The notes: a model not told the origin generated them from the letters alone. Shown: positions 5,282 to 57,607, counted from the first letter of the stretch. The stretch: DNA of 58,038 nucleotides from a virus (IMGVR_UViG_3300027892_002924:1-58038); one strand, 5' to 3'. A program made the numbers and translations.

Positions 5282-6871
5282 TTAGTGGAACATCAAAAAC
5301 TGCTTGGAGACGTCCAGTCTGCTGGCACCCAGATCCCCGTGCCCTGCCGGGAACACAACCACGTTCCACTTGGGCTTTGGACCCTCTGGAATACGATTCA
5401 TCTCATCGTAGGTGACAATGGTGCCCACATCCAGTTTGTAGATGTCTGCCAGCTTTTGTTTGAACTGATTCCAATCTGCTTCGCTCTTGACCTGTGTGCG
5501 GCCTTTTTCGTCCTTGACGTATTTGCCTTTGGCATCTGTCACAAACAGTTCGCGGAACATGTCTTTGGGCAAGGTCACAGCATCCTTCACGTGCCGGCCA
5601 GCATCACGTTGTACCTGTACTGTTTTAACTTCACGGCTCTTGGCGCCAGGACTGAACTGTCCAATGACATCATCTGGTTGGTCAGCTGATGCAATATCGC
5701 CCATCTTGGTGTAGAAATAGAACTTGCAATCTGGGTTCTGTGCCTTGACACCCATTACCAGGTCATAGTATTCTTTGGAGAAGAAGTCGCCGGCATCGTG
5801 TACACGAACCAAGAGTTTGATACCATTCTTGGTGGCCAGTGCTTTGGCCTTTTTAACTTCAGTGTCAAACATCTTCATGTAGTCTTCAGGATGATTGACC
5901 AAGAAGTTCAGTGCCTGTGCCGCACTCATTGAACTTGCAGGAAACATTACATATCCGCCCTTGCGAGCATAACAGTATAGTTGGCATTCGCCTGCACCCG
6001 GGCAGGTGGTAATTTCTACAAATTCGCTGGTCTCTTCATCCACCACTATGCCTGAAAGTGCTGGTAGCGTTAGATCATAGGTAATAGAGCCTTCTATTTT
6101 GCTCTTGGCCATTTTGGCATTTGTACCTAGTATAGCTCTTGGACGAGTGGTGATTTGACGGGCTAGGTCATCTAGGTCCCATTCTTCATTGCCATCGTTT
6201 TTGGTAATTGCTTTAACGTTGCTACCATGAATGATAGGTTTGAATCTGTCTTGTTTGGTTTTTGTACCTGTCTTGATTCTAGTCAAGTAATCCTGCATGT
6301 CTTGTCTGCTCCAGGACTTTTGTGGAGCATCTATTTTGATTGCTTCGTCGACTTCATCCACTGTGCCAAGATAGTGGTGATCATGTACTCGATAACCTTT
6401 ACGCTTGTGATGTGCAATCGCAGAATTGATTGCAGCTTCACGGCTGTCACTGGTAACACGCACTGATTTTTGGTATGTTTCTTTACGCTTTGACACCATT
6501 GGATGGTTAGGGTCAGTTACTGTGAGTCCAATGCGGTGTGTGACTGGTGCACCACCTTCAGCTGTGACCACAGGCTTGCCACTTTTTCCTGTGTTGGCAC
6601 CAAGTCCAGATACTCGGCCTTTGGTGTTGCCACGACCACCGGCTGAACCAATATGTGCCGAACCTTGCCAGCCTTCGCCTTTGCGTGGTTTAGCCGGTTT
6701 GAGTCGTTGTATTTCGCCACCACGTGCTAGGAATGCTGCCACAGCGTCATCGTCTTCCGCCATACCTTGCTCGTCGACTTCTTGCTCTGCACCGCTGGGT
6801 ACACTTGCAATGACCTTGACGTCAAATCCGCCTAGGTTGCGTGTGGTTTCTGTTAGTTCAGTATATCTCAT
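5282..6871 (-). CDS. modular protein with C-terminal GP88-like (radical-SAM-like Cys cluster) domain; putative internal head polyprotein
   Basis: Start MRYTELTE by ATGA overlap; LPA..TCPGAGECQLYCYARKG..RVHDAGDF..FYFYTK. Confidence 0.75.
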   Translation of the reverse strand: MRYTELTETTRNLGGFDVKVIASVPSGAEQEVDEQGMAEDDDAVAAFLARGGEIQRLKPAKPRKGEGWQGSAHIGSAGGRGNTKGRVSGLGANTGKSGKPVVTAEGGAPVTHRIGLTVTDPNHPMVSKRKETYQKSVRVTSDSREAAINSAIAHHKRKGYRVHDHHYLGTVDEVDEAIKIDAPQKSWSRQDMQDYLTRIKTGTKTKQDRFKPIIHGSNVKAITKNDGNEEWDLDDLARQITTRPRAILGTNAKMAKSKIEGSITYDLTLPALSGIVVDEETSEFVEITTCPGAGECQLYCYARKGGYVMFPASSMSAAQALNFLVNHPEDYMKMFDTEVKKAKALATKNGIKLLVRVHDAGDFFSKEYYDLVMGVKAQNPDCKFYFYTKMGDIASADQPDDVIGQFSPGAKSREVKTVQVQRDAGRHVKDAVTLPKDMFRELFVTDAKGKYVKDEKGRTQVKSEADWNQFKQKLADIYKLDVGTIVTYDEMNRIPEGPKPKWNVVVFPAGHGDLGASRLDVSKQFLMFH

Positions 6872-8928
6872 TTTTTTGCCTTTGCTCTGCCTGATTTCAT
6901 GTTGGCCATCCAGTGTGCTAATTGTCCTTTGCGGCCGCCCTGCTTGGCTACTTTTCTTAATGTACTTATGCTGGCCTTGGTTGGTACGCCGTGGCGCTTG
7001 CTGTCGCCTTTGTCCTGTGGGTTTCTGCCGTCGGCAAAGTTTTCCGCCATGCCTTGCTGCCCTAACAAAGATTGCACCCATGGAATGAACGTGTTTATGA
7101 TCCAGTCATTGTGCTGTTTGCTTTTGTCCAGTGTGCTAGAATCTGCCACGCGACCATTTATTGTCACAGGCTTGATACTGTTCACAGCATCCGTGATTTT
7201 CTTTTGCACAGCAGGATCAGCATCTTTGATCACAGTTTGCAAACGACCAGCGGCTTCACTTTGTCTACCCTGCATGGCCAACAATGCCACACGTTGCAAA
7301 TTGGCAAACACAGGATCACCTAGGTTGTTGAACATTTTGTTGATGCCATCGGCTTTGTTTTCCGCTACACCTTGCTTGGGAATCAACAATTCAGGCATGC
7401 GATACTCACTGACGTCCACTGGATACGGCTGTAGCGATGCTTTATATAATTCAGCATATTGTTCTTGTTCTTCAGGTGTCTTTGCTCTGTAAAACTTGTT
7501 GGCAATGGCCATATCGCCTACTAGAGTTCCTGGTGGAATGGAAATCTTTTTTGGCCCATAGTATTTTAATTTGTCAGAATCTTTGTTGGTCAAACTGTAA
7601 AAGGTTGATTCCCACTTATCCGGATGCAAGGCATATTGTGCAGTTGCTCTTTCTGGAACAAACTCTGCAAGTGTATCTGCGCCTGGATGAAATTTACCCA
7701 ACTTGGATAAACTTATAGCAGTATCATTACTTTCGCCTTCCGCCACATCTTGTTTTAATCTACTCAATTCGTAACGGACTATACTGCCAGTGTCGGCACG
7801 CAAGGCTCGATATCCCCAGGCACGTGAATAACGCTGTACCAGTCTATCGTACAACTTGGCACGGCTTTCAGGATTAAATTTCTCCACATTGTCTGCGTCC
7901 ATGTCAACTTCTTTGCTGGCCGAGAAACTTAGTTTCTGCGGTTTGTATTTTTTAATGTATTTTTGTATAGAATCCAGCACTGTGGCAAAGATTCTTTGAG
8001 CATCACCTTCACCCGTGACTTCTTGGCTGTTGTTTCTATAAAACTCAACTTGCACGACTTCTTCACCTTCGTCACCGTACTCCTGATTGAACATGATACT
8101 TAGATTTGACCCATCTGGCAGTTTGGCCAACATATCAATATCGCCATAATCACTTTTTTCTGATTTGGTCTTATAAGGTTGATCAAATGCCTCTTTCATT
8201 ATCCAGGTGTCGGGTATCTGTTTGTACTTGCTTACCCACATGTCGTGCAACTTTTGCCCGCTGATGCTGTGGCTCCTGGCGATGCGTGTCATCATCTTGT
8301 CAATGGTGTTGTAAACTTGATCATCGTCGGCTGACTGTAATTTGGCTTTGTGTGCTACCAATGCCGCACGTAATTCCTCCACAGCACCACCATCTTTGTC
8401 GTGATCCATGTTTTCGGCCAGTGTGGATTGATTGTAGGCTTGTTGTATCAACTTGAGTAACAAGGCGCCTAGCTCACCTTCAATGGTCATAGCACAGGCA
8501 TAAACTTGATCATCGGCGCCGTCGTCGCCTATTACTTCTTCTATGTAGTGCCAGAGTTCACTTTCTGCACGAATATTGGAAACAAGATCAGTAAGCGCAT
8601 CATTAAGTTCGTCTTCATCACTGATCACAGCAGGGTCGAGGCTCATGAGTATGTTACTGACTTGAGACATAACTTCTCGTGCAAGTAGGTGATTGGCCAG
8701 ATCAAAGATTTCTTGACTTCTTCTGAAAACGCTGGCATCAGCTCCTAGGTTGAAAGACAGTGTTTTAGCAAAAGGACCAGTATTGGCATCTAGATTACCC
8801 TGTATCATCTTGACCATGCTGGGTATGCGCTGTTGGAAAGTAACACGGCGTAGGTCTTTGCCCACGCGGTCACTTTGACCAAACATGTCTTCTTCGTCGT
8901 TCTCAACAATTACTTCTCTGATTTTCAT
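6868..8928 (-). CDS. modular putative internal head polyprotein
   Basis: Leader MKIREVIVE; unrelated segments joined by Q(G/D)(V/M)AE, TLAE and IMKE junctions. Confidence 0.75.
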   Translation of the reverse strand: MKIREVIVENDEEDMFGQSDRVGKDLRRVTFQQRIPSMVKMIQGNLDANTGPFAKTLSFNLGADASVFRRSQEIFDLANHLLAREVMSQVSNILMSLDPAVISDEDELNDALTDLVSNIRAESELWHYIEEVIGDDGADDQVYACAMTIEGELGALLLKLIQQAYNQSTLAENMDHDKDGGAVEELRAALVAHKAKLQSADDDQVYNTIDKMMTRIARSHSISGQKLHDMWVSKYKQIPDTWIMKEAFDQPYKTKSEKSDYGDIDMLAKLPDGSNLSIMFNQEYGDEGEEVVQVEFYRNNSQEVTGEGDAQRIFATVLDSIQKYIKKYKPQKLSFSASKEVDMDADNVEKFNPESRAKLYDRLVQRYSRAWGYRALRADTGSIVRYELSRLKQDVAEGESNDTAISLSKLGKFHPGADTLAEFVPERATAQYALHPDKWESTFYSLTNKDSDKLKYYGPKKISIPPGTLVGDMAIANKFYRAKTPEEQEQYAELYKASLQPYPVDVSEYRMPELLIPKQGVAENKADGINKMFNNLGDPVFANLQRVALLAMQGRQSEAAGRLQTVIKDADPAVQKKITDAVNSIKPVTINGRVADSSTLDKSKQHNDWIINTFIPWVQSLLGQQGMAENFADGRNPQDKGDSKRHGVPTKASISTLRKVAKQGGRKGQLAHWMANMKSGRAKAKK

Positions 8929-11054
8929 CGTAGTTGTTTCATTTCTGGTTGATCATGCTCTAGGCCAGGGCTTGCATCGTGACTATCTTCTTCTGGCCAG
9001 CAGTAGATGTATTGTCCTGCAAAGTCTTTTACCAGCATCCAGCGAATACCTGCGGCTGTGTACATGTGTGTTTGTGCCTTGTAGCCTGGCATCACTTGTT
9101 CAAAGTCAATGTCACCAGGACCACGATCATCGCCGTGCTTTTTAAGGAAGCCTGCCACTGCATTGACTTCTTGTGTGCTGTTAGGCCCTTGGCCACCTAG
9201 GTTAGCAACCACATGTATGCGCTTGGTTGGAGTCATGGTCAAGCTACCAAACAGGCTCTTGCCCAGCTGGCGAATCTGATCAGCCATGTTGCCCGGCAGG
9301 TTGGCCACTTGATGGAACTCTGGATTCTGTACGCCTGCGGCCTGCAGTGCTTGTCCTGCTACTGCTGGCAAGTTCTGTGTGTTTACATCCACAGAGGGTA
9401 GATTCTCGGGCGGCTCATCTGGATAGGCTTCTAGGTCTTTATCAAGCTCAATGTTTCTCATGCGGCCCAGCATGTCGCTCATGTCAGGTGTGCTGAGTCC
9501 TGAGGTCTTGCTCAAGGTGTCTTTCTGGCTGGCCTTGCGTAAATTTACTTTGGTATCATCGACGCCAGCTTTCTTTTTAAGATCGTCCAGTGGATCTGTG
9601 TGTGCCAGTGGCTGGTCTTGCGCCTGTTGGAAAGGAATATCAAACTTGAGATCAGGCTTGGTCTTGGTTGTGGTCTTGCGTGGACGCTCTGGTGGCTCTT
9701 CAAGTTCTGCATCAACTTCTTGTAACTTTTCCCATGAGTCATTTGTGCTGGTATCGCCCGATGGATCTGTGTTCCATGCATCACATACTTCTTCATATGC
9801 GCCAAATAGATCACCCATTTCATCATCATCAACACCATATTCGGCTTGCATTCGGTCATCATACTCGTCGAACCTTGAAGTAACTTGCAGTGCCTGTTTC
9901 AAAGTTAGCTTATGGCTCAAAGCAAATCCAGCTATGGCACGAAAATTATATCTGTTAGGATCCATACGGCTCCACTGGTATAGTGCCTGTGCTGTTTTTG
10001 GTGGTGTTTGAGTACCGCCAAACAGCTCATCATCTGACTCATCGTTGTTATCTGACTCGGTCACGTCCTGGTGTTGGTCCAACAGTGCGCTGATGCTGAT
10101 TCCAGTGTCTGCTTCTAGGTTGTCCTCAAAGTTTTCCCACCAGTCTGGCATATATTCATGCCAGGCTCTCAAGCCTGGCACCATGCCTTGTTTTTCAAAA
10201 ACATTGGCCACAAACCTCACGGCCTTGGCCTCTTCACGAATTTCTTCTAGGTCGTTTTCGTATTCTTGCCCATCCTCTGGGCTCAGTCCTGATATCTCTG
10301 CAGGATTATTGCGCATGGTGTTGGCAAAGTTCATGAGCCATTGTGCAATGCGACGATGTGCAGGATTGCCAAATAGTTCGTCATTATCTGACTCGCCTAG
10401 ATCCTCACCGTAAGCAAGTGCATAGAGATCAATGTCAAGTACCTCTTCGATTTGTTCTGCGGCATTTTCTCTAAGCATGGTATCTAGGCCTCTGAATGCA
10501 TCCAGGCCTGCTTCCATTCCTAGCTTAAATGCATTTGAGACTTCCTCAAATGAATTAGCATCGCTTTCTGTGCCGTCAGCGTATTCAGAATCTTGGTCGT
10601 CAGCACGTTGGTCGTCTGCTATGCCATACCATTCTCTAGCCATTTCAGCAAAAAATGTAGCCAGTTGCGTGGATTTGCGATCAGCAAATAGGTCATCGTC
10701 TGAATCATCTTCTTTGAGGCTCAGGAACTTTTTTATGTTCTGCATGCTAAGAGGTAATTTCTCAACACCGTCCTCATCGTAGAATAAGAAATCAAGATCT
10801 TCTTGTGTTGGCTCGTCGTCAAAGTATGTGAAGTCAGGAATAAAAGCAATCTGATTGTTTTTACGATCAACAATGACCAAGCCTTCTGTTCGATGCTCAC
10901 CGCCATAGCTAATGCCGCCGCCACCTATTTTATAACCTAGAGCACCTTCTTCTGGGAATTCAAATTTGTCTGCCAGCGTGGACACCAGATGATTGTCGCC
11001 AAATAAGTCACTGTCGCTCTGGTCATTTTCTCTAATAAATTCTGTACTTTTCAT
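8925..11054 (-). CDS. acidic modular putative internal head polyprotein
   Basis: Leader MKSTEFIRE; four [ILV]xE-acidic-LF(G/A) junctions. Confidence 0.75.
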   Translation of the reverse strand: MKSTEFIRENDQSDSDLFGDNHLVSTLADKFEFPEEGALGYKIGGGGISYGGEHRTEGLVIVDRKNNQIAFIPDFTYFDDEPTQEDLDFLFYDEDGVEKLPLSMQNIKKFLSLKEDDSDDDLFADRKSTQLATFFAEMAREWYGIADDQRADDQDSEYADGTESDANSFEEVSNAFKLGMEAGLDAFRGLDTMLRENAAEQIEEVLDIDLYALAYGEDLGESDNDELFGNPAHRRIAQWLMNFANTMRNNPAEISGLSPEDGQEYENDLEEIREEAKAVRFVANVFEKQGMVPGLRAWHEYMPDWWENFEDNLEADTGISISALLDQHQDVTESDNNDESDDELFGGTQTPPKTAQALYQWSRMDPNRYNFRAIAGFALSHKLTLKQALQVTSRFDEYDDRMQAEYGVDDDEMGDLFGAYEEVCDAWNTDPSGDTSTNDSWEKLQEVDAELEEPPERPRKTTTKTKPDLKFDIPFQQAQDQPLAHTDPLDDLKKKAGVDDTKVNLRKASQKDTLSKTSGLSTPDMSDMLGRMRNIELDKDLEAYPDEPPENLPSVDVNTQNLPAVAGQALQAAGVQNPEFHQVANLPGNMADQIRQLGKSLFGSLTMTPTKRIHVVANLGGQGPNSTQEVNAVAGFLKKHGDDRGPGDIDFEQVMPGYKAQTHMYTAAGIRWMLVKDFAGQYIYCWPEEDSHDASPGLEHDQPEMKQLR

Positions 11055-13165
11055 TATCTGTCACCCATGAATGTTTGTATTTCTTTTTGGAACCAATCTT
11101 GTTGTGCTACGTCTGGATCATTGCCAAACATATCCCACATCTCTACCATGTCCTGATGCCATTCACCGGAGTCAATAAGTGTTCCAAAATCATTTAGTCC
11201 ACTGAATCCTCCTGCATATTCGCGCAGAATAGCATCAACTACTATCGCTTTACCAAATGGTGTGCTGGTTGACCTACACACTAGATCAAATAATCTATTG
11301 GCATCTGGTTCCTCGCCTTGGGTAAGTTTTTCATATTCTGCTTTAATACGAGGATTGTTATAGGCTTGTTCTAGTTTGGCCAACATCTGCTTACCAAATT
11401 TATAGATCATGCGCTGTGCGGCAGAACCACTTACCCCAAACATCTCATCATCAGATTCTTCTTCGCCTAGTCGACTAGATCGATCCAGATGCAATACTAT
11501 GTCATCACCTTGTCCGTCTTCGGCGCCTGTGAGTTTTAGAACTCGCCAGTTAACCGCGCCACCGTCCTCGAGGTAGTGATTTATTATATCAACATCTTGC
11601 TCTGGATGATCACCATAAGAAAATCCAAGTGCCTGCAATTCGTCTTCGTCATACTCGTTGAAGAAATCGCCAAATCGTATGGTAGGTGATGCAAACAAGT
11701 CATCGTCGTCATTGCTTTCGTCGATCGGGTCATCAGTTATTGGAAAATGCGCTACAGGCACTCCACTGTCGTCGTTGTTCCAACGCTGTTTGTACACCGT
11801 GATGAAATCGTCTGTGCCGTACCCAGCTTCCGAGTACCCTGGAATTTGTTCTTTGGCATGTGCTATTGCTTCGCGTATGTCACCAAACATGCCAAGTACT
11901 TCGTTGTCGGGTGCCGAGACTACAAATACCTTTTGTTCACCATCACCAAACAAATCTTCGTCTGACTCTGCGTTTTCGTTAACGGTATCGTCGTGGTCAG
12001 CAACATCCACGCCCATGGCATCTTCGATGTAGTTGCGTAGATCATAGCGTATGTCGGTGTTGCTTAGTTTGTACTTGCTCCATACATGTATGCCGTGCAG
12101 GAAGCTTCGATTGAATCCTGCAATCACTGCCTCTACGAATTCTACTTCAAACTGTGCCAGTGGGCGTCGACTGCCTGTTTGTCTACGGCGCAGCCATAGT
12201 TCAAGATCCTGTGCAATTACTTTAGTGTCTGGTCTGGTGCTGGACCCAAACATGTCGTCATCGCTTTCGTCAATTGGATCATCGGTTATTGGAAACTCAG
12301 CTACAGGCACTCCGCTTTCCTCACCCCGATTGTGTTTATATACACTGATGAAATCGTCATCACCCCAGCCATCTTCTAGGTATGATGGAATTTGTTTTTT
12401 GGCATATGCTATTGCTTGGCGTATGTCACTGAACGTGTTAAGTATTTCGTCGTCGGGTGCCAAGACTACAAATACCTTTTCTCCGCCGGCGCCAAACAGT
12501 TCATCGTCTGACTCATCATTTTCAGTTACTTTATTGGCTATGAGATCATATACAGCATCGTTGATACCATCCAGCATTGCATCTTGCTTGTCTTTGCCTA
12601 TTGACTTCCAGTAATGAAGCAAGGGTTCCCCTCCTGGGGTCTTGCCCAGTGCAAATCCAACCATGAAAGGACTGGTGATCAGTCTTGCAGATTTGTCTGA
12701 ACGAACAATGGCTCTTGCAATAGATTGTGTTAGAGTAGCGGCACTAGGCGCAGAGCCAAACAGTTCATCGTCGTTTTCTTCTCGCAACAGATCAGAATAG
12801 GTAGGAGGCACAAGAACACTAAGCCAACCTGAGCCTGTGAACTTACACTCAAACCCTTGCCTCTCTAGTTCTGCTTTTATTTCCTGTGCCACTGGAAGAG
12901 GTTTTGGTGCACGATCCCCTGGGCCCTTTACATAGTCACCAAACCAGAAAGTTGCTCTGCCACGAGATGCACTTTTAGGTATGCTACTCACACGAGTTTT
13001 TATTCCAAACCCTGTCTTGGCCAACTCACGCACCCGGCTCACTGTGCGTAGATACGGATCTTCTATCTGTTTGATTGCCTGCTTGGCGCCGGTGGCCAGA
13101 TTACCCGGCGCACTAAACATGTCGTCATCGTTTTTAATGGCTTCTATTATCTCACGATAACGCAT
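11054..13165 (-). CDS. acidic modular putative internal head polyprotein with duplicated domain
   Basis: Start reset to MRYREIIE; seven [ILV]xE-acidic-(L/M)F(G/A/S) junctions. Confidence 0.75.
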   Translation of the reverse strand: MRYREIIEAIKNDDDMFSAPGNLATGAKQAIKQIEDPYLRTVSRVRELAKTGFGIKTRVSSIPKSASRGRATFWFGDYVKGPGDRAPKPLPVAQEIKAELERQGFECKFTGSGWLSVLVPPTYSDLLREENDDELFGSAPSAATLTQSIARAIVRSDKSARLITSPFMVGFALGKTPGGEPLLHYWKSIGKDKQDAMLDGINDAVYDLIANKVTENDESDDELFGAGGEKVFVVLAPDDEILNTFSDIRQAIAYAKKQIPSYLEDGWGDDDFISVYKHNRGEESGVPVAEFPITDDPIDESDDDMFGSSTRPDTKVIAQDLELWLRRRQTGSRRPLAQFEVEFVEAVIAGFNRSFLHGIHVWSKYKLSNTDIRYDLRNYIEDAMGVDVADHDDTVNENAESDEDLFGDGEQKVFVVSAPDNEVLGMFGDIREAIAHAKEQIPGYSEAGYGTDDFITVYKQRWNNDDSGVPVAHFPITDDPIDESNDDDDLFASPTIRFGDFFNEYDEDELQALGFSYGDHPEQDVDIINHYLEDGGAVNWRVLKLTGAEDGQGDDIVLHLDRSSRLGEEESDDEMFGVSGSAAQRMIYKFGKQMLAKLEQAYNNPRIKAEYEKLTQGEEPDANRLFDLVCRSTSTPFGKAIVVDAILREYAGGFSGLNDFGTLIDSGEWHQDMVEMWDMFGNDPDVAQQDWFQKEIQTFMGDR

Positions 13166-14450
13166 GACCCTGCTCCTGTAGTTTTGCTGTGTACAGCTTG
13201 GGTATCTGGCGCATGAGGAATCTAAACAGCGGGTCACGCATCACAAGATCCTGTATGTGTGGGATCGCATCTTTATGCATTCTTGATCTTGAATTTGTCA
13301 AGGCCGCTACCAATGCTTGTCCTGACTTGCTGGTTTCAACAGGTATATGCAGTGATTTGTCAGCACTGAGGATAGACTCAATCTTGTCTTCACTGCGTTC
13401 TAGTCCTGGCTCTGCAATTATCTGGCTCCAGATCCCACCTTTTGCATTCATAGCCGTTATACACTGTGCTAGATAATCTCTCATGCCCGCGGCAATTGAT
13501 TCTTGTTCAGACTGTGCTAGATCAATACCATATTCTTTCAAGCTCTTGAAACCAAACCCAATGATACGATCAGCATACTGGTCAACCATTGCTGTTGTTT
13601 GTTTTATAACTGTAGGAGTAAACTCTTTGACAATGCTCTTGTACTCTTCGCCTATTAGTGGCGCTACTGAATATTTCTCTGCAGGTAGTTGTAGGATCTT
13701 GGTCAGCTCAGGAAATCGTTTTACCAATTTGGCAATACCGCCTGCACCAATCTGCTGATCTTGTTCGTCCATGAACTGTTTGGTTTCAAAGTGGAACTGA
13801 TACTTTTCTCCAGGATACGCCTGCTGACGTGGAATAATAACATACAGTGGGCGATTGCCTTTGGTGTAGTAGTTAAACAGGTTGTTGTTCTTGCCTGCGG
13901 TACACCAACGAGTACCTTGCCCATAGTAGCAGGCGGCCTGCTCGTCCTGCGGGATAGTAACAATCAGATTGCTGTCACGATAGAGTTCTTGGGCGTTTTG
14001 TTTGACTTCTGGCTTGGCTTCTTCCTCTTCAGGGTATTCGTCTACCACATCATAAAAAGATTCTAGATCTCGATATCGGTTGAAGTCATTGCGTGGAGGC
14101 TGTATCTTTTTCTTGCGCTTGAGACGATCAAACTTGACCAGATAGTCAGCCAGTGTAGATACCACGTCTTCCATCTTGCTCAGTCCATTGCTATACATCT
14201 TGGCAATGCTCTGGCTGTATTCTTTGTTGGGTGTTGGGTCACCTTTTTCAATATACTGTAGTATCATATCTATCAACTGTTGTGGCTGTGTCTTGGCCAG
14301 TTCTTTAACAGTTGCGCCTTGTGGTAGTTCAGCTTGTATTTGCATGAGCAGCCAACGGTCTTGTCCCATTGCGGCAATCAGCTTGTTACCATAGGCATCT
14401 GCTGTTTTGTTGCGATCGTACTCTAGCAGTACTAATTGGTTGTATCTCAT
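13152..14450 (-). CDS. hypothetical protein with PcfJ-like domain
   Basis: ACYYGQGTRWCTAG..LFNYY..PLYVII..KYQFH; leader MRYNQLVLLE. Confidence 0.65.
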   Translation of the reverse strand: MRYNQLVLLEYDRNKTADAYGNKLIAAMGQDRWLLMQIQAELPQGATVKELAKTQPQQLIDMILQYIEKGDPTPNKEYSQSIAKMYSNGLSKMEDVVSTLADYLVKFDRLKRKKKIQPPRNDFNRYRDLESFYDVVDEYPEEEEAKPEVKQNAQELYRDSNLIVTIPQDEQAACYYGQGTRWCTAGKNNNLFNYYTKGNRPLYVIIPRQQAYPGEKYQFHFETKQFMDEQDQQIGAGGIAKLVKRFPELTKILQLPAEKYSVAPLIGEEYKSIVKEFTPTVIKQTTAMVDQYADRIIGFGFKSLKEYGIDLAQSEQESIAAGMRDYLAQCITAMNAKGGIWSQIIAEPGLERSEDKIESILSADKSLHIPVETSKSGQALVAALTNSRSRMHKDAIPHIQDLVMRDPLFRFLMRQIPKLYTAKLQEQGHALS

Positions 14451-16126
14451 TCAATGATCTCCGGATGTTCTTTGCCGTATAATTTCATCAGATACCCGGC
14501 TTCGGCATCTGCATCACGTTCTAGCGGGCTACCAGGAGGATTGTGTCCTTTGATACGACCTTCACTGCCCTGTTTGCGATGACGCAGTTCGTGTGCTATC
14601 GTGCGCAGTATGTCGATTAGATTGCGATTGCCAGTGTACACCCACATGGTATTGGTGTCTGCATTGTACCATCCGGTATGATGCATGTCTTCACTGTCTT
14701 TTTTGTTGGAAAGTTCTATATTAGGGCGTGGCGCATCAATGCGTTGTTTTTTGTATACCCAGTCGACAAAATGTTCAATGCGTTTCATTTGATCTGATTG
14801 ATCTATGTCTTCAGTGATTTCTTTGTCAGGCTGCACAGCAACAGGCATGCTTCGGTCCTGACTCTTCAACTGCTGTGGTTCATGCTCACGCTCTTTGCGT
14901 ATGATCTCAAAGCCACGCTTGAGTCCTTGTACCACAACATCCAGGCTGTCTTCGTCTGCCTGATACTTGATACCAATACCACCGGCTGCTTCCCACTTGG
15001 AGATGTTGTCGCCGCGGTCATCAATCAAGAAGTTAGGCGTGCCATCTGGTTGTGTGGCATACTTGGGTTTGTTGGGAGTGATAACAATGTCCTTGGGCTG
15101 TGGGCTTAGATGTTCGTTAATCCATACTGTCTTTTGTACTTCGCTGTTTTTAAAATCGCCACGCAGTGGACTAGAGCAGATGTTGTAGTGGCCAAACAGT
15201 TTGACCACCATGCCAACTAACGAGTCTGCTGTGGGAAACTTTGGTAGTCGCGCAAAGAAGTCTGTGCCTATCATCATGTTCAGTGTAGGATCTGTTTTGG
15301 CAGGAGGAATGTCTCTGTAGCTGCCGTTTTCGACTCCTGCCAGCTTGGCATACTCTGTAAAGAAGTCTGCCAGTACCCCATCCATATCTAGATACATCTC
15401 TGGTTTGTATTCTGTACGTGCGGCTTCACGCAGGCCTAGTCCTTGGTCTTCAAGATTGCCCATGTGCTTGCGCAGTTTTTCTAAACTGCCATCTGCACGA
15501 AGTATTTTGAATGCAAGATTCTCAGGGGAGAACTCTCCGCCCGACTCCAGTCCTGTTTTTCTCATGCTCTTGATAGAGGCCCACAACTGAGCCACACTGT
15601 CGTGATTGTCACTGACGATGGCCTGGTTGATACGATGTTTCACACTACGATACTTTTCTTGTACTTCAATGTCATCTACCTGCGCACGTTGGCGCTTGGG
15701 CTGGCTGATCCAGCGATCATGTTGTACGCTGTAGATACCCATGCTGTGGTGTGCATCTTCTGCGTCCTGTACATAGAGTTCGACATCGTACCCGCGGATA
15801 CGGATATTGTGTTGATCGTTGTACTGATACTTCTTGGCTGTGAATAATTCTTTTAGTTCTGCTTCGTGCTCATCTGGAATCATTACCACAAGATGTAGAT
15901 CAATGTCTGAATTGGGTGTGTAGGTATAGGCTGCATTACTGCCCGAAATTGTGATGTCCACAAGATCAAACATGTCAATGCCCAGGAAGTCTTTGAAGTG
16001 ACGAGCAATGCGCAGTAGAGTTTTACGAACTCGCGGCTGTAGCTTGTCCCCTTTCCATAGTGCAGGGTTCAGCTCATCGTGAAAATTCACAGCAAGATTT
16101 AGTTCTTCAAACTCGTTTAGGCGCAT
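14447..16126 (-). CDS. fusion of Pol-beta-type nucleotidyltransferase, HAD 5'(3')-nucleotidase and zincin-like domain
   Basis: GSNA..SDIDLH..DVELY; YLDMDGVLADF..LIDDR; AHELRH..ERDAD. Confidence 0.8.
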   Translation of the reverse strand: MRLNEFEELNLAVNFHDELNPALWKGDKLQPRVRKTLLRIARHFKDFLGIDMFDLVDITISGSNAAYTYTPNSDIDLHLVVMIPDEHEAELKELFTAKKYQYNDQHNIRIRGYDVELYVQDAEDAHHSMGIYSVQHDRWISQPKRQRAQVDDIEVQEKYRSVKHRINQAIVSDNHDSVAQLWASIKSMRKTGLESGGEFSPENLAFKILRADGSLEKLRKHMGNLEDQGLGLREAARTEYKPEMYLDMDGVLADFFTEYAKLAGVENGSYRDIPPAKTDPTLNMMIGTDFFARLPKFPTADSLVGMVVKLFGHYNICSSPLRGDFKNSEVQKTVWINEHLSPQPKDIVITPNKPKYATQPDGTPNFLIDDRGDNISKWEAAGGIGIKYQADEDSLDVVVQGLKRGFEIIRKEREHEPQQLKSQDRSMPVAVQPDKEITEDIDQSDQMKRIEHFVDWVYKKQRIDAPRPNIELSNKKDSEDMHHTGWYNADTNTMWVYTGNRNLIDILRTIAHELRHRKQGSEGRIKGHNPPGSPLERDADAEAGYLMKLYGKEHPEIIE

Positions 16127-16134
16127 AATATCTT

Positions 16135-16164
16135 AAAAAAATAGGAGACTATCAGTCTCCTATT
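16135..16164 (-). terminator. Rho-independent terminator after clpP
   Basis: AATAGGAGAC-TGATA-GTCTCCTATT then T run. Confidence 0.75.
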
Positions 16165-16188: not shown

Positions 16189-16779
16189 TTATCTTGCTGA
16201 CAGTACCTGGTCTGCAAGGCCGTATGCAACTGCCTCTTCTGCACTCATGAAGAAATCACGTTCCATGTCGGCTGCTAACTCGGCGTATGTACGACCCGCG
16301 GTGTTGTGTTTTACATAGATATCTGTGAGATACTGCTTCATTTTAAGGATTTCCCGCACCTGGATTTCCATGTCAGTAGCTTGGCCACCAGCGCCACCGC
16401 TGGGTTGATGGATCATGTGTCTTGCGTGTGGTAATATCAGACGTTTACCGGCTGCGCCTGCTTGTGCTAACAAACTGCCCATGGAGCAGGCCTGTCCCAT
16501 TACAATGGTGCTTACGTCAGGTTTGATAAACTGCATGGTGTCGTAGATTGCCATTCCTGCTGTTACACTTCCACCTGGACTGTTGATATAGAACAAAATA
16601 TCGGCTTCTGGATTTTCACTTTCCAAGAACAAAAACTGTGCGACCAACAAGCTGGCACTGTGCTCACTTACTTCGTTATCCAGTAGGATGATACGGTCTT
16701 TGAGCAAACGACTGTAGATGTCATAGGCACGTTCACCATTGGAAGTTTTTTCTAATACGGTAGGTACAAAATTTGGCAT
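16189..16779 (-). CDS. clpP: ATP-dependent Clp protease proteolytic subunit
   Basis: [29 protein letters not shown] (Ser), MIHQP (His), MERD (Asp). Confidence 0.97.
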
Positions 16780-17689: not shown

Positions 17690-18196
17690 TTAGCACTTGT
17701 TAAAATCTTGATGTTTGAACCATCGGCGCATTCCGTGGCTGGTTTTTAAGTCCATTCCATAATAGGCCATGCGTTCGCGCCAGGCAAAGAAGCTAGGTCC
17801 ATGTGCGCCTGAATTTTCAGATACATTAAAACCCGTGTTATCAAATCGTTCTATGTCCCATTGATACTGATGCACCATTTCGTGTGCTAGGGTAGTACAG
17901 AACCACTGTGGGCAGAACCATTTGTCCATCAAGGATATTGAGCACCAGGTTCCTGGTTTGCTGTGACTACCACGTTTTTGCAAGTCACCCATCCACTGGC
18001 AAACACCCCAGGTTTTTCTAAGTGTGCCTAGATGTATGTCAGGCAGGGTCAGCACATTGTGAAATATATGCTTATTAAGACTGTGATAAAGACGGGTAGT
18101 TTCTTCTAGAGACGGGCGATAAGGCAATCGTCTTTGCACCGACACACGCGGCAATGGTGCAGTCATATACTGAGTAATCAAACTAGGTCTAGCCAT
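17690..18196 (-). CDS. SprT-like metalloprotease
   Basis: TLAHEMVHQYQ and GAHGPSF motifs. Confidence 0.8.
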   Translation of the reverse strand: MARPSLITQYMTAPLPRVSVQRRLPYRPSLEETTRLYHSLNKHIFHNVLTLPDIHLGTLRKTWGVCQWMGDLQKRGSHSKPGTWCSISLMDKWFCPQWFCTTLAHEMVHQYQWDIERFDNTGFNVSENSGAHGPSFFAWRERMAYYGMDLKTSHGMRRWFKHQDFNKC

Positions 18197-32050: not shown

Positions 32051-32368
32051 TTAAGCCTCTGGCTCTAGTTTAACTTGAAGTGGAAATCCGTTGTTACGGG
32101 CCAGCACCGTGACTTCGATGCCTTTTTGTTCTGCTAACTCATATGGAAGAACAGCAACCACGCCAGATCCTTCTTGATGGATCTGCATGGTTAGATTTTG
32201 TGCGCGATCTTCTTCATATTCAAATACATTTTTTAGAACCTCAACAATAAATTCCATGGTGGTAATTTCATCATTGATAAAGAGTACCTTAAACATGCGA
32301 GGTTCATGAATGTTTAGTTTTGGTTCAATTTTAAGATTGTTTTGTGTTTTAGTAAGTGTCTCTGCCAT
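32051..32368 (-). CDS. clpS: ClpS N-degron adaptor
   Basis: FKVLFINDEITTMEFIVEVL..IHQEG..AEQK..FPL. Confidence 0.92.
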   Translation of the reverse strand: MAETLTKTQNNLKIEPKLNIHEPRMFKVLFINDEITTMEFIVEVLKNVFEYEEDRAQNLTMQIHQEGSGVVAVLPYELAEQKGIEVTVLARNNGFPLQVKLEPEA

Positions 32369-33202: not shown

Positions 33203-33444
33203 CAGTATAGTTTTTTAGGCAATGCTTCTGCTTCGAGTTTTTTCTGCCAACGTCGACGAGCTTGGCTTTTTGCTTTTTTACGAGCAGCAGTGGGTTTTTC
33301 GTAAAACTCTCGTTCACGTAGTTCTTGAAGCAGACCGCTGTCTTGGACTTTCTTTTTAAACTTGCGCAGAGCTTTGTCAACTTGGTCGTTGACTACAAAA
33401 ACTCTGTTGCCAGGCGCTATTGGTCTGTTTTTATCTTTGATCAT
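33202..33444 (-). CDS. rpsU: ribosomal protein bS21
   Basis: VDKALRKFKKKV..G.L.ELREREFYEKPT..RKK. Confidence 0.92.
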   Translation of the reverse strand: MIKDKNRPIAPGNRVFVVNDQVDKALRKFKKKVQDSGLLQELREREFYEKPTAARKKAKSQARRRWQKKLEAEALPKKLY

Positions 33445-34646
33445 TTAATATATTCCGGTTCCTGTTGGTTTGTAATTACTTCGCTATTGATGCGTATTTT
33501 ACTTATACCTTGACGCTTTAGTGTATGTAAAGAATACATGGTTTTCATCAACACTTGGTCAATGATGCTTTTGAGTCCACGAGCGCCAATATCTCGCTCT
33601 ACTGCGGTTTGAGCTATTGCTAATATTGCTGTGTCTTCAAATTCTAATTCTATGTCATCCGTAGAAAAATACCATTTGGTTTGTTCTATTAGATTGTTTT
33701 TGGGTTCTACCAGTATCCGAGCCAGATCTTCTAGCGTCAGAGGATTGATTTTAACTGTGACAGGAAATCTTCCAACAAACTCTGGTATCATTCCAAATTT
33801 TATAAAATCTTCTGGCAAGGTAGTTTTTGTTTTATGGTCAGCTGATCTAGCTTGTGTTGTGAAACCCATACCAGAATAATTTTGTCTTTCGTCGAGAATT
33901 TTTTCCAGCCCTTCAAAACTGCCACCAGCAATGAACAAGATGTTGCTGGTATCAATTTCTACTGTGTCCAGTGCAGGATGCTTCTTGGTAGTGTTTACAC
34001 TAACAGTGCATTTTGTGCCTTCTACTAATTTGAGCAGGGCTTGTTGTACACCTTCGCCGCCAACATCTCGATGCAGGCTTGCGCTCTCGCTCTTGCGACC
34101 AATCTTGTCTATTTCATCAATAAAGATAATTCCTTGTTGGCATTTTTCAACATCATTATCGGCAGCACTTAACAGTCTTGAAATTACACTTTCAACATCA
34201 TCACCGACATAGCCTGCTTGTGTGAGGGTGGTAGCATCTGCAATCACAAATGGCACATTAAGATATCGTGCTACAGTTTTTGCCAGCAGTGTTTTACCAG
34301 ATCCTGTTGTGCCGTGAAATAACAAATTACTTTTTTCTATTTCAATACTGGGTTGAAAGAACACTCGCTTGTAATGATTTACCACTGCAACAGATAGTGC
34401 AGTCTTTGCGTCCTCTTGGCCAATCACATATTCATCAAGGTACTTTTTTATTTTAACAGGGTCAAGAGATTTGGCTATTTTTTTATCTGACTGTAGATTC
34501 TTAATACGTTCTTTGCTTAAGATGTCTCCGCAGAACTCAATGCATTCATTACAGATGCCTGCATCGTTGGCCACAATCAGCTTGTCTACTTCGTTGCGAT
34601 TTTTGCCGCAGAAGTTACACAGCACGTGAGTGATATTGTCTGTCAT
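33441..34646 (-). CDS. clpX: ClpX ATPase
   Basis: C4 zinc domain, Walker A GTTGSGKT, GYVG pore loop, IFIDEIDK, GEGVQQALLK, MGF loop, GARGL. Confidence 0.95.
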   Translation of the reverse strand: MTDNITHVLCNFCGKNRNEVDKLIVANDAGICNECIEFCGDILSKERIKNLQSDKKIAKSLDPVKIKKYLDEYVIGQEDAKTALSVAVVNHYKRVFFQPSIEIEKSNLLFHGTTGSGKTLLAKTVARYLNVPFVIADATTLTQAGYVGDDVESVISRLLSAADNDVEKCQQGIIFIDEIDKIGRKSESASLHRDVGGEGVQQALLKLVEGTKCTVSVNTTKKHPALDTVEIDTSNILFIAGGSFEGLEKILDERQNYSGMGFTTQARSADHKTKTTLPEDFIKFGMIPEFVGRFPVTVKINPLTLEDLARILVEPKNNLIEQTKWYFSTDDIELEFEDTAILAIAQTAVERDIGARGLKSIIDQVLMKTMYSLHTLKRQGISKIRINSEVITNQQEPEYIK

Positions 34647-39526: not shown

Positions 39527-39898
39527 ATGAAAGCATTCCTTGAAGTCACCGAGTGGCCGGACAAGTCTGTTGCAAACTGCAATCATGTGTACTGGATGGA
39601 TGACAGCAAAGACAAGATGTTTGCCTATGCAAAGTTTGGCAACCCTGCAGAAACTCAAACATTCAAAAACCCAATTCGCATTGACACCCGTGGTCGCAAG
39701 TTTGAAGAAGTGCGCAATATCTACAAATGGACAGTGTCGGGTGCGGTTATTACTGCAAACCCAACCTGGACTGTTACAGGCACCAAGGGCGATAAGTATA
39801 CAGTAGAGAAGGATGGCTCAGTGTACAACTGCACCTGCTCTGGTTTTAAGTTTCGCGGCGCATGCCGTCACATTGAGGAGATAGAAAATGGACATTGA
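39527..39898 (+). CDS. SWIM zinc-finger protein
   Basis: CTCSGFKFRGACRH. Confidence 0.8.
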   Translation: MKAFLEVTEWPDKSVANCNHVYWMDDSKDKMFAYAKFGNPAETQTFKNPIRIDTRGRKFEEVRNIYKWTVSGAVITANPTWTVTGTKGDKYTVEKDGSVYNCTCSGFKFRGACRHIEEIENGH

Positions 39899-56467: not shown

Positions 56468-57607
56468 TTATCCGTTCTTGGCAAAGTTTGCCTTGCTGAA
56501 TCCCAGGCGATCAATCAGCTTCATCTTTTCGTCGCCACCACCTACTACATAGCCTTCGTGTCCCGAATCATTGCCGGTGAATGCTTGTATATCGCCTGCA
56601 CCTACCTGTGTGTCAATCTGTTGCTTGATGTTGAGTTTCAAATTGTATATTGCTACCCAGATAGCAAATAATCCTTCTAGTCCCGGTGCACCTTCTTTGT
56701 ACAACCAGCCGTCTTGGTTACTGCCTAGCAATTTACCAGCTGCCGCTGGACTTAGCTTGCTTGGCAAATACTGGTAGAAGCCTGCCAGCATGTTATCAAA
56801 TGATCCACCAGTGATCTTGCTGGTGATATAGGTACTGATAGCCCCGAGCACTCCCTTGGCTTTCATTGCTGTCAGCTGACCAATAAAGTCAGTTACTGCA
56901 CCTTCATATTGTTTAATAGTTGAGTTTGCGGCATTGACTGCGCCTGTATCCATCTTGACCTTGGGTACAGGCATCTCACCTGTTACAAACCATATGGGAC
57001 CATCTGAAGGCAAGCCTCCAAGACCAGTAAGAGGTTGGTCACCTTCGCCAATGCCAGGAATAAATGTGTGTACTGCAATACCAGCCACACTAGAACCAAT
57101 GTGCTTGCCTGCGCCGCTGTTGGCTTTGACCTTGTAGGTCACTGTGTTGGGTTTGAATGTGTAAAATCCGTTGTCTGGTGATAGCTTGCCTGCATACAAC
57201 AGGTCGCCCATGTAAAAACCACGAAAGTTCTTGGGAATAATTTTTTCTAATGCACCCCAGATCACATTAACTTTGCCATATAGGTCAGCACGGTCAGCAC
57301 CACGATTGGCATCATACTGTTGGAACGCTTGTGGGCTGGTCACACGACCTTCGCCTGACTTTTTATCAAACATGTGCTTGTCCACGACCATGAGCTCACC
57401 ATCAACATTACGACCAAACACCAGTGCTGGAAATCCGTCCCACTTGATTGTGGTCAATTCTTTGCCTTTGGCCATTTGGCCTAGTGCTGCCACTGCACGT
57501 TGTGCGCCAGGAATGCCTTCGCCGAACACCAGGTCTTCTGGATGTACAATGTGTGCGCCTTCAACTATGCGTTTGCGACTTTCGGTAATAATATCTCTGA
57601 TCTTCAT
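56468..57607 (-). CDS. DUF6267-like protein with ligase-type KxDG motif
   Basis: HPEDL, TIKWDGFPALVFG, MGDLLY, FKPNTVTY, HEGYV, KLIDRLGFS; leader MKIRDIITE. Confidence 0.7.
   Translation of the reverse strand: MKIRDIITESRKRIVEGAHIVHPEDLVFGEGIPGAQRAVAALGQMAKGKELTTIKWDGFPALVFGRNVDGELMVVDKHMFDKKSGEGRVTSPQAFQQYDANRGADRADLYGKVNVIWGALEKIIPKNFRGFYMGDLLYAGKLSPDNGFYTFKPNTVTYKVKANSGAGKHIGSSVAGIAVHTFIPGIGEGDQPLTGLGGLPSDGPIWFVTGEMPVPKVKMDTGAVNAANSTIKQYEGAVTDFIGQLTAMKAKGVLGAISTYITSKITGGSFDNMLAGFYQYLPSKLSPAAAGKLLGSNQDGWLYKEGAPGLEGLFAIWVAIYNLKLNIKQQIDTQVGAGDIQAFTGNDSGHEGYVVGGGDEKMKLIDRLGFSKANFAKNG

Follow-up and report, generated by a model that had tools for sequence, protein, structure and literature searches.

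Three adjacent genes on a 58,038-base contig of an uncultured jumbo phage (IMGVR_UViG_3300027892_002924; the window, by which we mean this whole stretch) encode proteins, termed here A, B and C, that carry between them twelve copies of a short tag, in which a [Leu/Ile/Val]-x-Glu triplet is followed by an acidic run and then by Leu/Met-Phe. With about even confidence, and on the evidence of sequence, we favor the reading that all three are head-cargo polyproteins that would be cut at each of these Glu residues, the released modules keeping the tag as a common docking label. T4-type capsid targeting and Glu-specific processing are known; what would be new is shuffled polyproteins with an added conserved tag. 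The contig is the whole record of a phage of ~355 kb (CheckV completeness 16%), and the three genes are members of a six-gene block on the minus strand, running from 16126 down to 5282, in which A, B and C are translationally coupled: the start codon of B overlaps the stop of A, and that of C overlaps the stop of B. Their products and N-termini are as follows:

11054..13165, minus strand: polyprotein A, 703 amino acids, seven tags and seven modules of ~75-135 amino acids
13142-13165, minus strand: targeting-like N-terminus of polyprotein A, MRYREIIE
8925..11054, minus strand: polyprotein B, 709 amino acids, four tags, three small acidic modules and a terminal piece
11028-11054, minus strand: N-terminus of polyprotein B, MKSTEFIRE
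6868..8928, minus strand: protein C, 686 amino acids, one tag directly behind its N-terminus
8902-8928, minus strand: N-terminus of protein C, MKIREVIVE

The twelve tags had been listed in an earlier note on this DNA, and the minus strand contains every one of them, with the sequence and at the place that it gave. Coordinates below span the hydrophobic residue of the x-Glu triplet through the final Gly, Ala or Ser, and low-confidence stretches are given in residues of the structural model of A described further on:

13112..13150, minus strand: tag A1, IIE-AIKNDDDMFS
12755..12787, minus strand: tag A2, LRE-ENDDELFG, in low-confidence stretch 123-140
12491..12529, minus strand: tag A3, VTE-NDESDDELFG, in low-confidence stretch 212-229
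12245..12274, minus strand: tag A4, IDE-SDDDMFG, in low-confidence stretch 297-311
11945..11983, minus strand: tag A5, VNE-NAESDEDLFG, in low-confidence stretch 396-410
11690..11725, minus strand: tag A6, IDE-SNDDDDLFA, in low-confidence stretch 480-492
11435..11470, minus strand: tag A7, LGE-EESDDEMFG, in low-confidence stretch 563-580
10998..11036, minus strand: tag B1, IRE-NDQSDSDLFG
10683..10718, minus strand: tag B2, LKE-DDSDDDLFA
10368..10400, minus strand: tag B3, LGE-SDNDELFG
10017..10064, minus strand: tag B4, VTE-SDNNDESDDELFG
8878..8910, minus strand: tag C1, IVE-NDEEDMFG

A scan of the kind that the note had proposed, with the regular expression [DENSQ]{3,}[LM]F[GAS] in all six frames of the window, returned exactly 12 matches, each of them one of these tags; 5000 composition-preserving shuffles of the three proteins gave a mean of 0.086 matches and a maximum of 3. 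Synonymous codons differ between the copies (TCA, AGC, TCT and AGT for Ser; CTG, TTG, TTA and CTA for Leu; GAT and GAC for Asp), so that, as the note had held, the motif is one of the peptide and selection is on the peptide; the same variation rules out a DNA repeat. The Phe of the tag is nonetheless TTT in all twelve, although A, B and C together use TTT and TTC at 60:31. A degenerate thirteenth tag (Asp-Asp-Asp-Glu-Met-Gly-Asp-Leu-Phe-Gly; 9801-9830, minus strand; residues 409-418 of B) lies inside B's fourth piece.

A word-based search with protein A (E <= 0.001, 8000 candidates scored) yielded 70 metagenomic homologues, in which the same regular expression found 369 tags, 2-9 per protein; single-tag proteins also exist, which extends the range of copy number to 1 to 9. 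In the 256 distinct tag contexts from these homologues the motif has two parts, a [LIV]-x-Glu triplet and, 6-11 residues on, an almost invariant Asp-Asp-[Asp/Glu]-[Leu/Met]-Phe-[Gly/Ser/Ala], the full core reading [Ser/Asp/Asn]-Asp-Asp-[Asp/Glu]-[Leu/Met]-Phe-[Gly/Ser/Ala]. Counted from the Phe, the positions are occupied as follows:

Position -4: Asp in 230 of 256, Gln in 3
Position -3: Asp in 216 of 256
Position -2: Asp in 143 and Glu in 110 of 256
Position -1: Leu in 177 and Met in 68 of 256 (27% Met)
Phe itself: 256 of 256
Position +1: Gly in 158, Ser in 53 and Ala in 45 of 256, partly by construction of the regular expression

A hydrophobic triplet, [ILVMFY]-x-Glu, with its Glu 6-11 residues ahead of the Phe, precedes 246 of the 256 tags (96%), as against a background of 4523/32806 (13.8%) for hydrophobic-x-Glu at other positions of the same proteins. 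The hydrophobic position is filled by Leu (113), Ile (65) or Val (35) in 213 of 243 cases; directly after the Glu, over the same number, come Ser (90), Asn (61), Asp (31), Ala (24), Glu (21) and Thr (11), which make up 238, and other residues in 5. Tag junctions are hence marked by a strict Glu and then an Asp-dominated run. A literature search for four representative tag hexamers found no paper containing them.

That the tags lie at domain boundaries and head modules, as the note had claimed, is borne out both by predicted structure and by homology. In an AlphaFold2 model of polyprotein A (33-row alignment, mean predicted local distance difference test score, or pLDDT, of 64.7), tags occupy seven of the nine stretches with pLDDT < 50 (residues 1-34, 123-140, 212-229, 297-311, 396-410, 480-492 and 563-580), with one tag Phe in each (residues 17, 136, 224, 306, 406, 491 and 576); all seven tagged stretches lie between folded modules, which themselves reach a pLDDT of about 70-85. 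Each of A's tags is thus in a predicted disordered linker, and breakpoints of homology cluster at tags: when 81 proteins were compared by an unbiased all-against-all BLAST, which gave 4558 local alignments, a tag stood at 61% of the 3122 starts that are internal and at 58% of the 3446 internal ends, compared with 16-18% for random positions. Among the homologues, 62 of 70 have a targeting-like start, and 60 of these 62 carry a tag within their first 30 residues, the remaining two having a tag variant that the regular expression missed. A match within the last 30 residues occurs in just one of the 70, where it is non-acidic, and none of A, B and C ends with a tag.

When 105 tag-bearing proteins were cut at their tags, the resulting 466 modules (pieces of >= 30 amino acids) fell into 93 families, typically of 70-135 amino acids and arranged in many different orders; the family of A's first module alone is found in 44 proteins, with differing neighbors. 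Each unit has the form of tag, module and x-Glu, and units can therefore be swapped, duplicated or lost at the junctions, a format that would account for the combinatorial shuffling observed among relatives. The modules are for the most part unlike characterized domains: no Pfam family was found in 58 of the 62 tag-bearing relatives scanned, the exceptions including a GH19 lysozyme-type domain in P0073 and a GNAT domain in P0065, and P0048 carries zeta-toxin kinase and GNAT domains behind two tags. What stands behind tags in P0073 and P0048 is thus of virion or conflict type, which supports the reading as cargo. Pfam and PHROGs likewise gave no family in polyproteins A and B. A Foldseek search of the 703-residue model of A against the PDB found no match at E <= 0.001, a result that is little informative for a seven-domain model.

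All six proteins of the block begin with 8-9 residues that resemble the T4 capsid targeting sequence. In T4 this signal reads MKTYQEFIAE (PMC8442874) and consists of the first 10 residues of IPIII, of which residues 4 and 7 serve targeting and 8 and 10 processing, and an Asp at position 10 of the targeting peptide blocks processing (available portion of PMC9026906). MKSTEFIRE, MKIREVIVE and MRYREIIE follow the same pattern but are one or two residues shorter, and the strict Glu followed by an Asp-rich run at the tags fits the preference of T4-type proteases for cutting at Glu and not at Asp. Such targeting-like N-termini are 5-20 times commoner than expected from internal positions: the window has 7 where 0.36 would be expected, and the complete relatives G001, G004 and G005 have 11 (expected 1.14), 7 (0.89) and 7 (1.35), respectively.

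A candidate for the cutting enzyme is present in these relatives. Peptidase_S77, the family of T4 gp21, scores above the Pfam cut-off in all five complete ones (G001, G004, G005, G034 and G043), and was not found in three fragmentary relative records. In G001 (354,959 bp, complete with terminal repeats), the S77 gene lies between the portal gene and the genes for a scaffold-like protein and the major head protein. Ranked by density of [LIV]-x-Glu among the 249 G001 open reading frames of 150 amino acids or more, the scaffold-like protein comes top (7.10 per 100 amino acids against a mean of 1.19) and the S77 protease third; four such sites fall within the first 42 residues of the head protein. 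Head proteases of T4, phiKZ and SPN3US cut C-terminal to Glu within a three-residue motif (PMC5694885 and PMC9026906, in the parts available). The cut after Glu that the note had supposed is accordingly plausible on two counts, the triplet ahead of 246/256 tags and the S77 protease in 5/5 complete relatives, and we treat it below as predicted.

The distribution of the tag is much narrower than that of the targeting-like N-termini. The other three proteins of the block have targeting-like starts and no tag:

14447..16126, minus strand: first gene of the block, 559 amino acids, starts MRLNEFEE, no tag
13152..14450, minus strand: second gene of the block, 432 amino acids, starts MRYNQLVLLE, no tag
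5282..6871, minus strand: last gene of the block, 529 amino acids from the Met that gives MRYTELTE, no tag, GP88 domain

In G001, 17 of 21 strict matches to the regular expression fall within the counterpart of this locus, a run of four adjacent genes at 30.2-39.0 kb; three of the other four are non-acidic, and no match falls in any head gene. The complete relatives G004 and G005 contain no acidic tag; they encode separate small proteins with targeting-like starts, together with homologues of two neighbors and of the C-terminal domain of B. Alignment of this last domain recovers 97 stretches in IMG/VR, many of them on contigs of 350-520 kb, from which 80 loci were retained. When 50 of these 80 records were scanned with a degenerate DNA pattern for the tag core, only four matched (16, 10, 10 and 4 matches, each set on a single strand and in a single cluster), and a reversed control pattern gave 0-1 matches per record. 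The untagged proteins with targeting-like starts, together with the tagless head genes of G001, indicate that cutting and packaging do not in general require the tag. As far as these genomes go, the tag is a novelty of the lineage whose cargo became fused into polyproteins.

The favored reading can be set out as a series of steps. The first 8-9 residues, like the T4 targeting sequence, would bring each chain into the core of the assembling head. There the S77 protease, encoded outside this fragment, would cut after the Glu of each [Leu/Ile/Val]-x-Glu, removing the targeting peptide and freeing about a dozen small, mostly acidic domains of roughly 85-135 amino acids, plus larger end pieces. Each freed piece is predicted to start with Ser, Asn or Asp, followed by the acidic run and by Asp-Asp-[Asp/Glu]-[Leu/Met]-Phe-[Gly/Ser/Ala], all on a flexible tail. 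In the last and least supported step, the retained tag would act as a short docking motif for one putative common partner, either as a shared handle for holding and positioning the modules in the head and for their exit through the tail, or for meeting one hub in the infected cell.

More tentatively, the tag may be a portable delivery or address signal for injected effectors, with one reader recognizing it at the N-terminus of more than 90 unrelated module families once the head protease has freed them. This is possible at best; the candidate reader might belong to the ejection path, or might be a hub of phage or host origin whose pocket accepts an acidic Leu-Phe peptide.

Several observations weigh against a docking label of this kind. 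The S77 protease is absent from the 58-kb window, which CheckV estimates to be 16% complete. Protein C has, in its translation, several junction-like [L/V/M]-Ala-Glu-Asn/Gly sites without an acidic tag, so that junctions can exist without one; one of these sites precedes a decayed tag that retains Met-Phe. The variant of a tag is tied to the module downstream only modestly more than to the module upstream (mutual information of 1.50 against 1.33 bits, both far above shuffles and both inflated by relatedness). The modules are acidic, with an isoelectric point (pI) of ~4-5 in 9 of 11 tagged pieces, whereas T4 internal proteins are basic; by protein, the predicted pieces of A and B have a pI of 4.05-5.0 except A's first piece at 9.5, and the 677-residue piece of protein C has one of 5.7. 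Finally, the tight spacing of 6-11 residues between Glu and Phe would suit a protease that reads both together.

This last point leads to the rival that survives best, which we nevertheless consider unlikely: the composite motif would be a processing site and nothing else, with the acidic run keeping the junction disordered and off DNA, the Leu/Met-Phe serving as an anchor for an exosite on the protease, and the tag left without a job once cutting is over. Apart from the constrained spacing, which holds in 246 of 256 contexts, it would account for the disordered linker predicted around each tag of A and for the confinement of tags to the clade with fused modules, the tagless relatives encoding separate small proteins with targeting-like starts. 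However, every module is tagged, including the first, at a position where the untagged proteins of the block have x-Glu alone, and [LIV]-x-Glu abounds in the protease, the scaffold-like protein and the head protein, none of which is tagged. The Asp-Asp and the Phe are moreover near-invariant across the 93 module families, beyond the needs of a spacer, and T4-type proteases use very few determinants beyond their short motif (PMC9026906, as far as its available text goes). We prefer a label to a part of the cutting site because every module bears the tag, the first included, because no chain ends with it, and because other predicted substrates of the protease lack it; the somewhat closer tie of the tag variant to its downstream module points, modestly, the same way.

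A second alternative dispenses with cutting, the chains remaining whole and their 2-9 acidic-aromatic stickers binding many copies of one basic partner or driving a condensate, such as a mass in the head resembling an inner body or an assembly in the infected cell. Up to nine copies per chain, and an acidic-plus-aromatic motif placed in disordered linkers, are what such multivalency would call for; but it gives no role to the strict [Leu/Ile/Val]-x-Glu ahead of 96% of tags, and copy number goes down to 1, single-tag proteins being among those found. We regard it as improbable.

The earlier note had itself raised timed degradation, in which further trimming after the Glu cut would expose Leu-Phe as an N-degron for ClpS, so that Clp proteases would clear the injected modules. 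The phage does encode ClpS, as the note had stated, along with ClpX and a full-length ClpP:

16140..16164, minus strand: terminator-like hairpin, an 11-pair stem and then a T run, lying between ClpP and the opening gene of the cargo block
16189-16779, minus strand: ClpP (PF00574, 262 bits), full-length, with catalytic Ser, His and Asp read from the sequence
32072-32305, minus strand: ClpS, 92 bits
32427-32861, minus strand: Hsp20
33441-34646, minus strand: ClpX, whose ClpP-docking loop reads Met-Gly-Phe

Candidate trimmers are also at hand nearby, in the HExxH region of the 559-residue protein and in a SprT-like peptidase (17690-18196). A ClpS N-degron, however, is a free N-terminal Leu, Phe, Tyr or Trp, and the residue after the predicted cut is one of these in 0 of 243 cases, which means that a second cut would be required; 68 of 256 tags, moreover, have Met, which is not among the classical ligands of ClpS. 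ClpA, the partner of ClpS, did not turn up in the window (the search did not extend to G001). Nor does ClpS track the tag, since it is present in tagless G005 and was not found in tagless G004, and the hairpin separates ClpP from the cargo block. We therefore hold this part of the note's proposal to be very improbable, and ClpS was dropped as the reader of the tag for want of co-occurrence with it. ClpP was set aside as a functional neighbor, being found in tagged and tagless relatives alike and lying beyond the hairpin; it occurs in all five relatives searched, and ClpS is patchy.

Equally hard to credit is a cut by some other protease (zincin-like HExxH, SprT-like or ClpP) between Leu/Met-Phe and Gly/Ser/Ala, freeing an acidic peptide or leaving a C-terminal tail. 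A small residue follows the Phe in 256 of 256 contexts, partly by construction of the regular expression, and polyvalent proteins often carry zincin peptidases proposed to process the proteins themselves (available text of PMC5512222), but the C-terminal end of the last module has no tag, and a tag stands right after the N-terminal peptide of 8-9 residues, so that a tail-making cut would label the wrong pieces. SprT-like genes, furthermore, also occur in tagless relatives: tblastn found none in G004 and G005, and Pfam finds them in tagless G043 and weakly in G034 and G004, on which ground the peptidase was rejected as a clade-specific partner. As for the tag being merely a recombination joint, a conserved in-frame linker for module exchange with an otherwise neutral peptide, the clustered breakpoints and the many orders of the 93 families would agree with it, but codons vary synonymously and DNA identity is partial where the peptide is near-invariant, which points to selection on the peptide, and shuffling at linkers is expected from selection on viable products alone; we give it very little credence.

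Of the note's proposal that the tag is a shared label docking to one partner, the label retained on each module stands as our preferred reading, whereas the likeness that it had seen to the acidic tail of SSB or to clamp-binding motifs does not hold. A tail of the SSB type is an acidic run that ends in an aromatic residue at the very C-terminus, and the tags are internal or N-terminal and never C-terminal. The beta-clamp pentapeptide has Gln four residues before its final Phe and a hydrophobic residue at its second position; judged against this consensus, the tag has the wrong residues, with Asp at -4 in 230 of 256 (Gln in 3) and Asp at -3 in 216. The tag may also resemble the acidic, hydrophobic C-terminal tail of ribosomal stalk proteins of archaea and eukaryotes, and the loops by which Clp ATPases dock to ClpP, but we make no claim for either likeness.

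The closest known parallel is with the internal proteins of T4 (IPI, IPII, IPIII and Alt), which share with the present proteins a short N-terminal peptide ending in Ile-x-Glu, an S77-type protease (here in the complete relatives) and a cut, here predicted, after Glu. They are diverse, injected counter-defence proteins that have only the targeting peptide in common, and a diverse, fast-changing payload behind a conserved signal is a further likeness; ejection of the 76-residue IPI* is believed not to involve unfolding, a view that the small size of the modules here fits (PMC3012670, in the part available). The T4 proteins, however, are single, basic and cut once, whereas here acidic modules are fused with 1-7 sites (up to 9 in relatives), and each site is followed by an acidic Leu/Met-Phe element, none being reported for T4 internal proteins. 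The small, basic, DNA-associated character of the latter is thus not shared by the predicted pieces, most of which have a pI of 4.05-5.0. The inner-body and ejection proteins of phiKZ, 201phi2-1 and SPN3US are likewise from giant phages and likewise cut several times after Glu at a three-residue motif, but their motifs are Ser/Ala/Gly-x-Glu or Ala-x-Glu, the cuts remove long propeptides, and the portions of PMC9026906 and PMC5694885 examined mention no conserved element beyond the cut. Sequence similarity to them was not found either, tblastn of A and B against 50,697 phage records having given no match. No repeated element downstream of T4-type cleavage sites is described in the passages of literature examined.

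Polyvalent proteins (Iyer et al. 2017, PMC5512222, part of the text) are similar in being multi-domain, mosaic and of the injected-effector type, and nucleotidyltransferase, HExxH, zeta-toxin kinase, GNAT and lysozyme-type domains occur in neighbors or relatives of the present proteins, a mix that fits their theme of injected conflict proteins. Their hallmark of conflict domains (zincin peptidase, ArdC-N, nucleases, nucleotidyltransferases and others) in the same chain is not seen here, A and B having no Pfam family, and the junctions here carry one repeated linker motif, whereas the word 'linker' does not appear in the main text of PMC5512222.

The last ~265 residues of B (8925-9722, minus strand) are a widespread conserved domain of unknown function with 16 invariant residues. 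An exhaustive HMMER search with B returned 488 cluster representatives, most of which match only this part, and 122 of the 144 new proteins listed from that search have no tag; polyprotein A, used as the sole query in a scan of IMG/VR, recovered no relative. The domain is often a stand-alone protein of ~250 residues with a targeting-like start and a Lys/Thr-rich stretch. It has no Pfam or PHROG relative, and a profile search of the PDB gave 0 matches at E up to 1; for its stand-alone relatives, Pfam and PHROGs were empty save for one PHROG of unknown function and one sub-threshold match to PcfJ. Protein C ends in ~58 basic residues (6871-7056, minus strand), preceded by Met-Ala-Glu, that are 85% identical in the otherwise distant G004 (312373-312537) and 55% identical in G005 (174824-174997), where they end a different cargo protein; the counterpart in G001 lies at 39623-39805. 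This basic end could be a peptide that is released on its own and passed from one cargo protein to another. Searched against PDB sequences, protein C had 0 matches up to E = 1.

Elsewhere in the block, the 559-residue protein combines nucleotidyltransferase-like and 5'-nucleotidase-like regions with a stretch near its C-terminus that reads HExxH in translation, and this HExxH part is a separate gene in G004 (311338-311646). Residues 41-57 of the GP88-domain protein (5282-6871, minus strand), in its N-terminal part, weakly match the RNA-polymerase-binding domain of SutA, with a score below threshold (E 2e-4; 21 bits, the cut-off being 29.3). Far from the block, a DUF6267 protein (56468-57607, minus strand) also has a targeting-like start (MKIRDIITE), as does its relative in G005 (312576-313694), and further capsid-targeted cargo may be scattered across these genomes. 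Among 50,697 phage records searched for cultured relatives, neither megablast with positions 8800-13300 nor tblastn with polyproteins A and B found a match.

Proteins that are carried in the capsid and enter the cell together with the DNA are the first means by which a phage meets host defences, and to our knowledge their selection, packing and release are poorly understood except in T4, P1 and the phiKZ group. Should the tag be a docking label, its pattern, which is highly specific, would provide a handle with which to search metagenomes for hundreds of injected effectors, a direct bait for the partner, and possibly a tool for loading foreign proteins into phage heads and delivering them. If it is a portable address for injected effectors, it would work like a secretion signal, and new counter-defence modules could be added by placing them behind it. 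And if it is a cutting signal only, a T4-type protease would be reading residues far downstream of its cut. The locus suggests that a jumbo-phage lineage has made the T4 scheme of targeting peptide and Glu cut into a cassette system of tag, small module and cut site.

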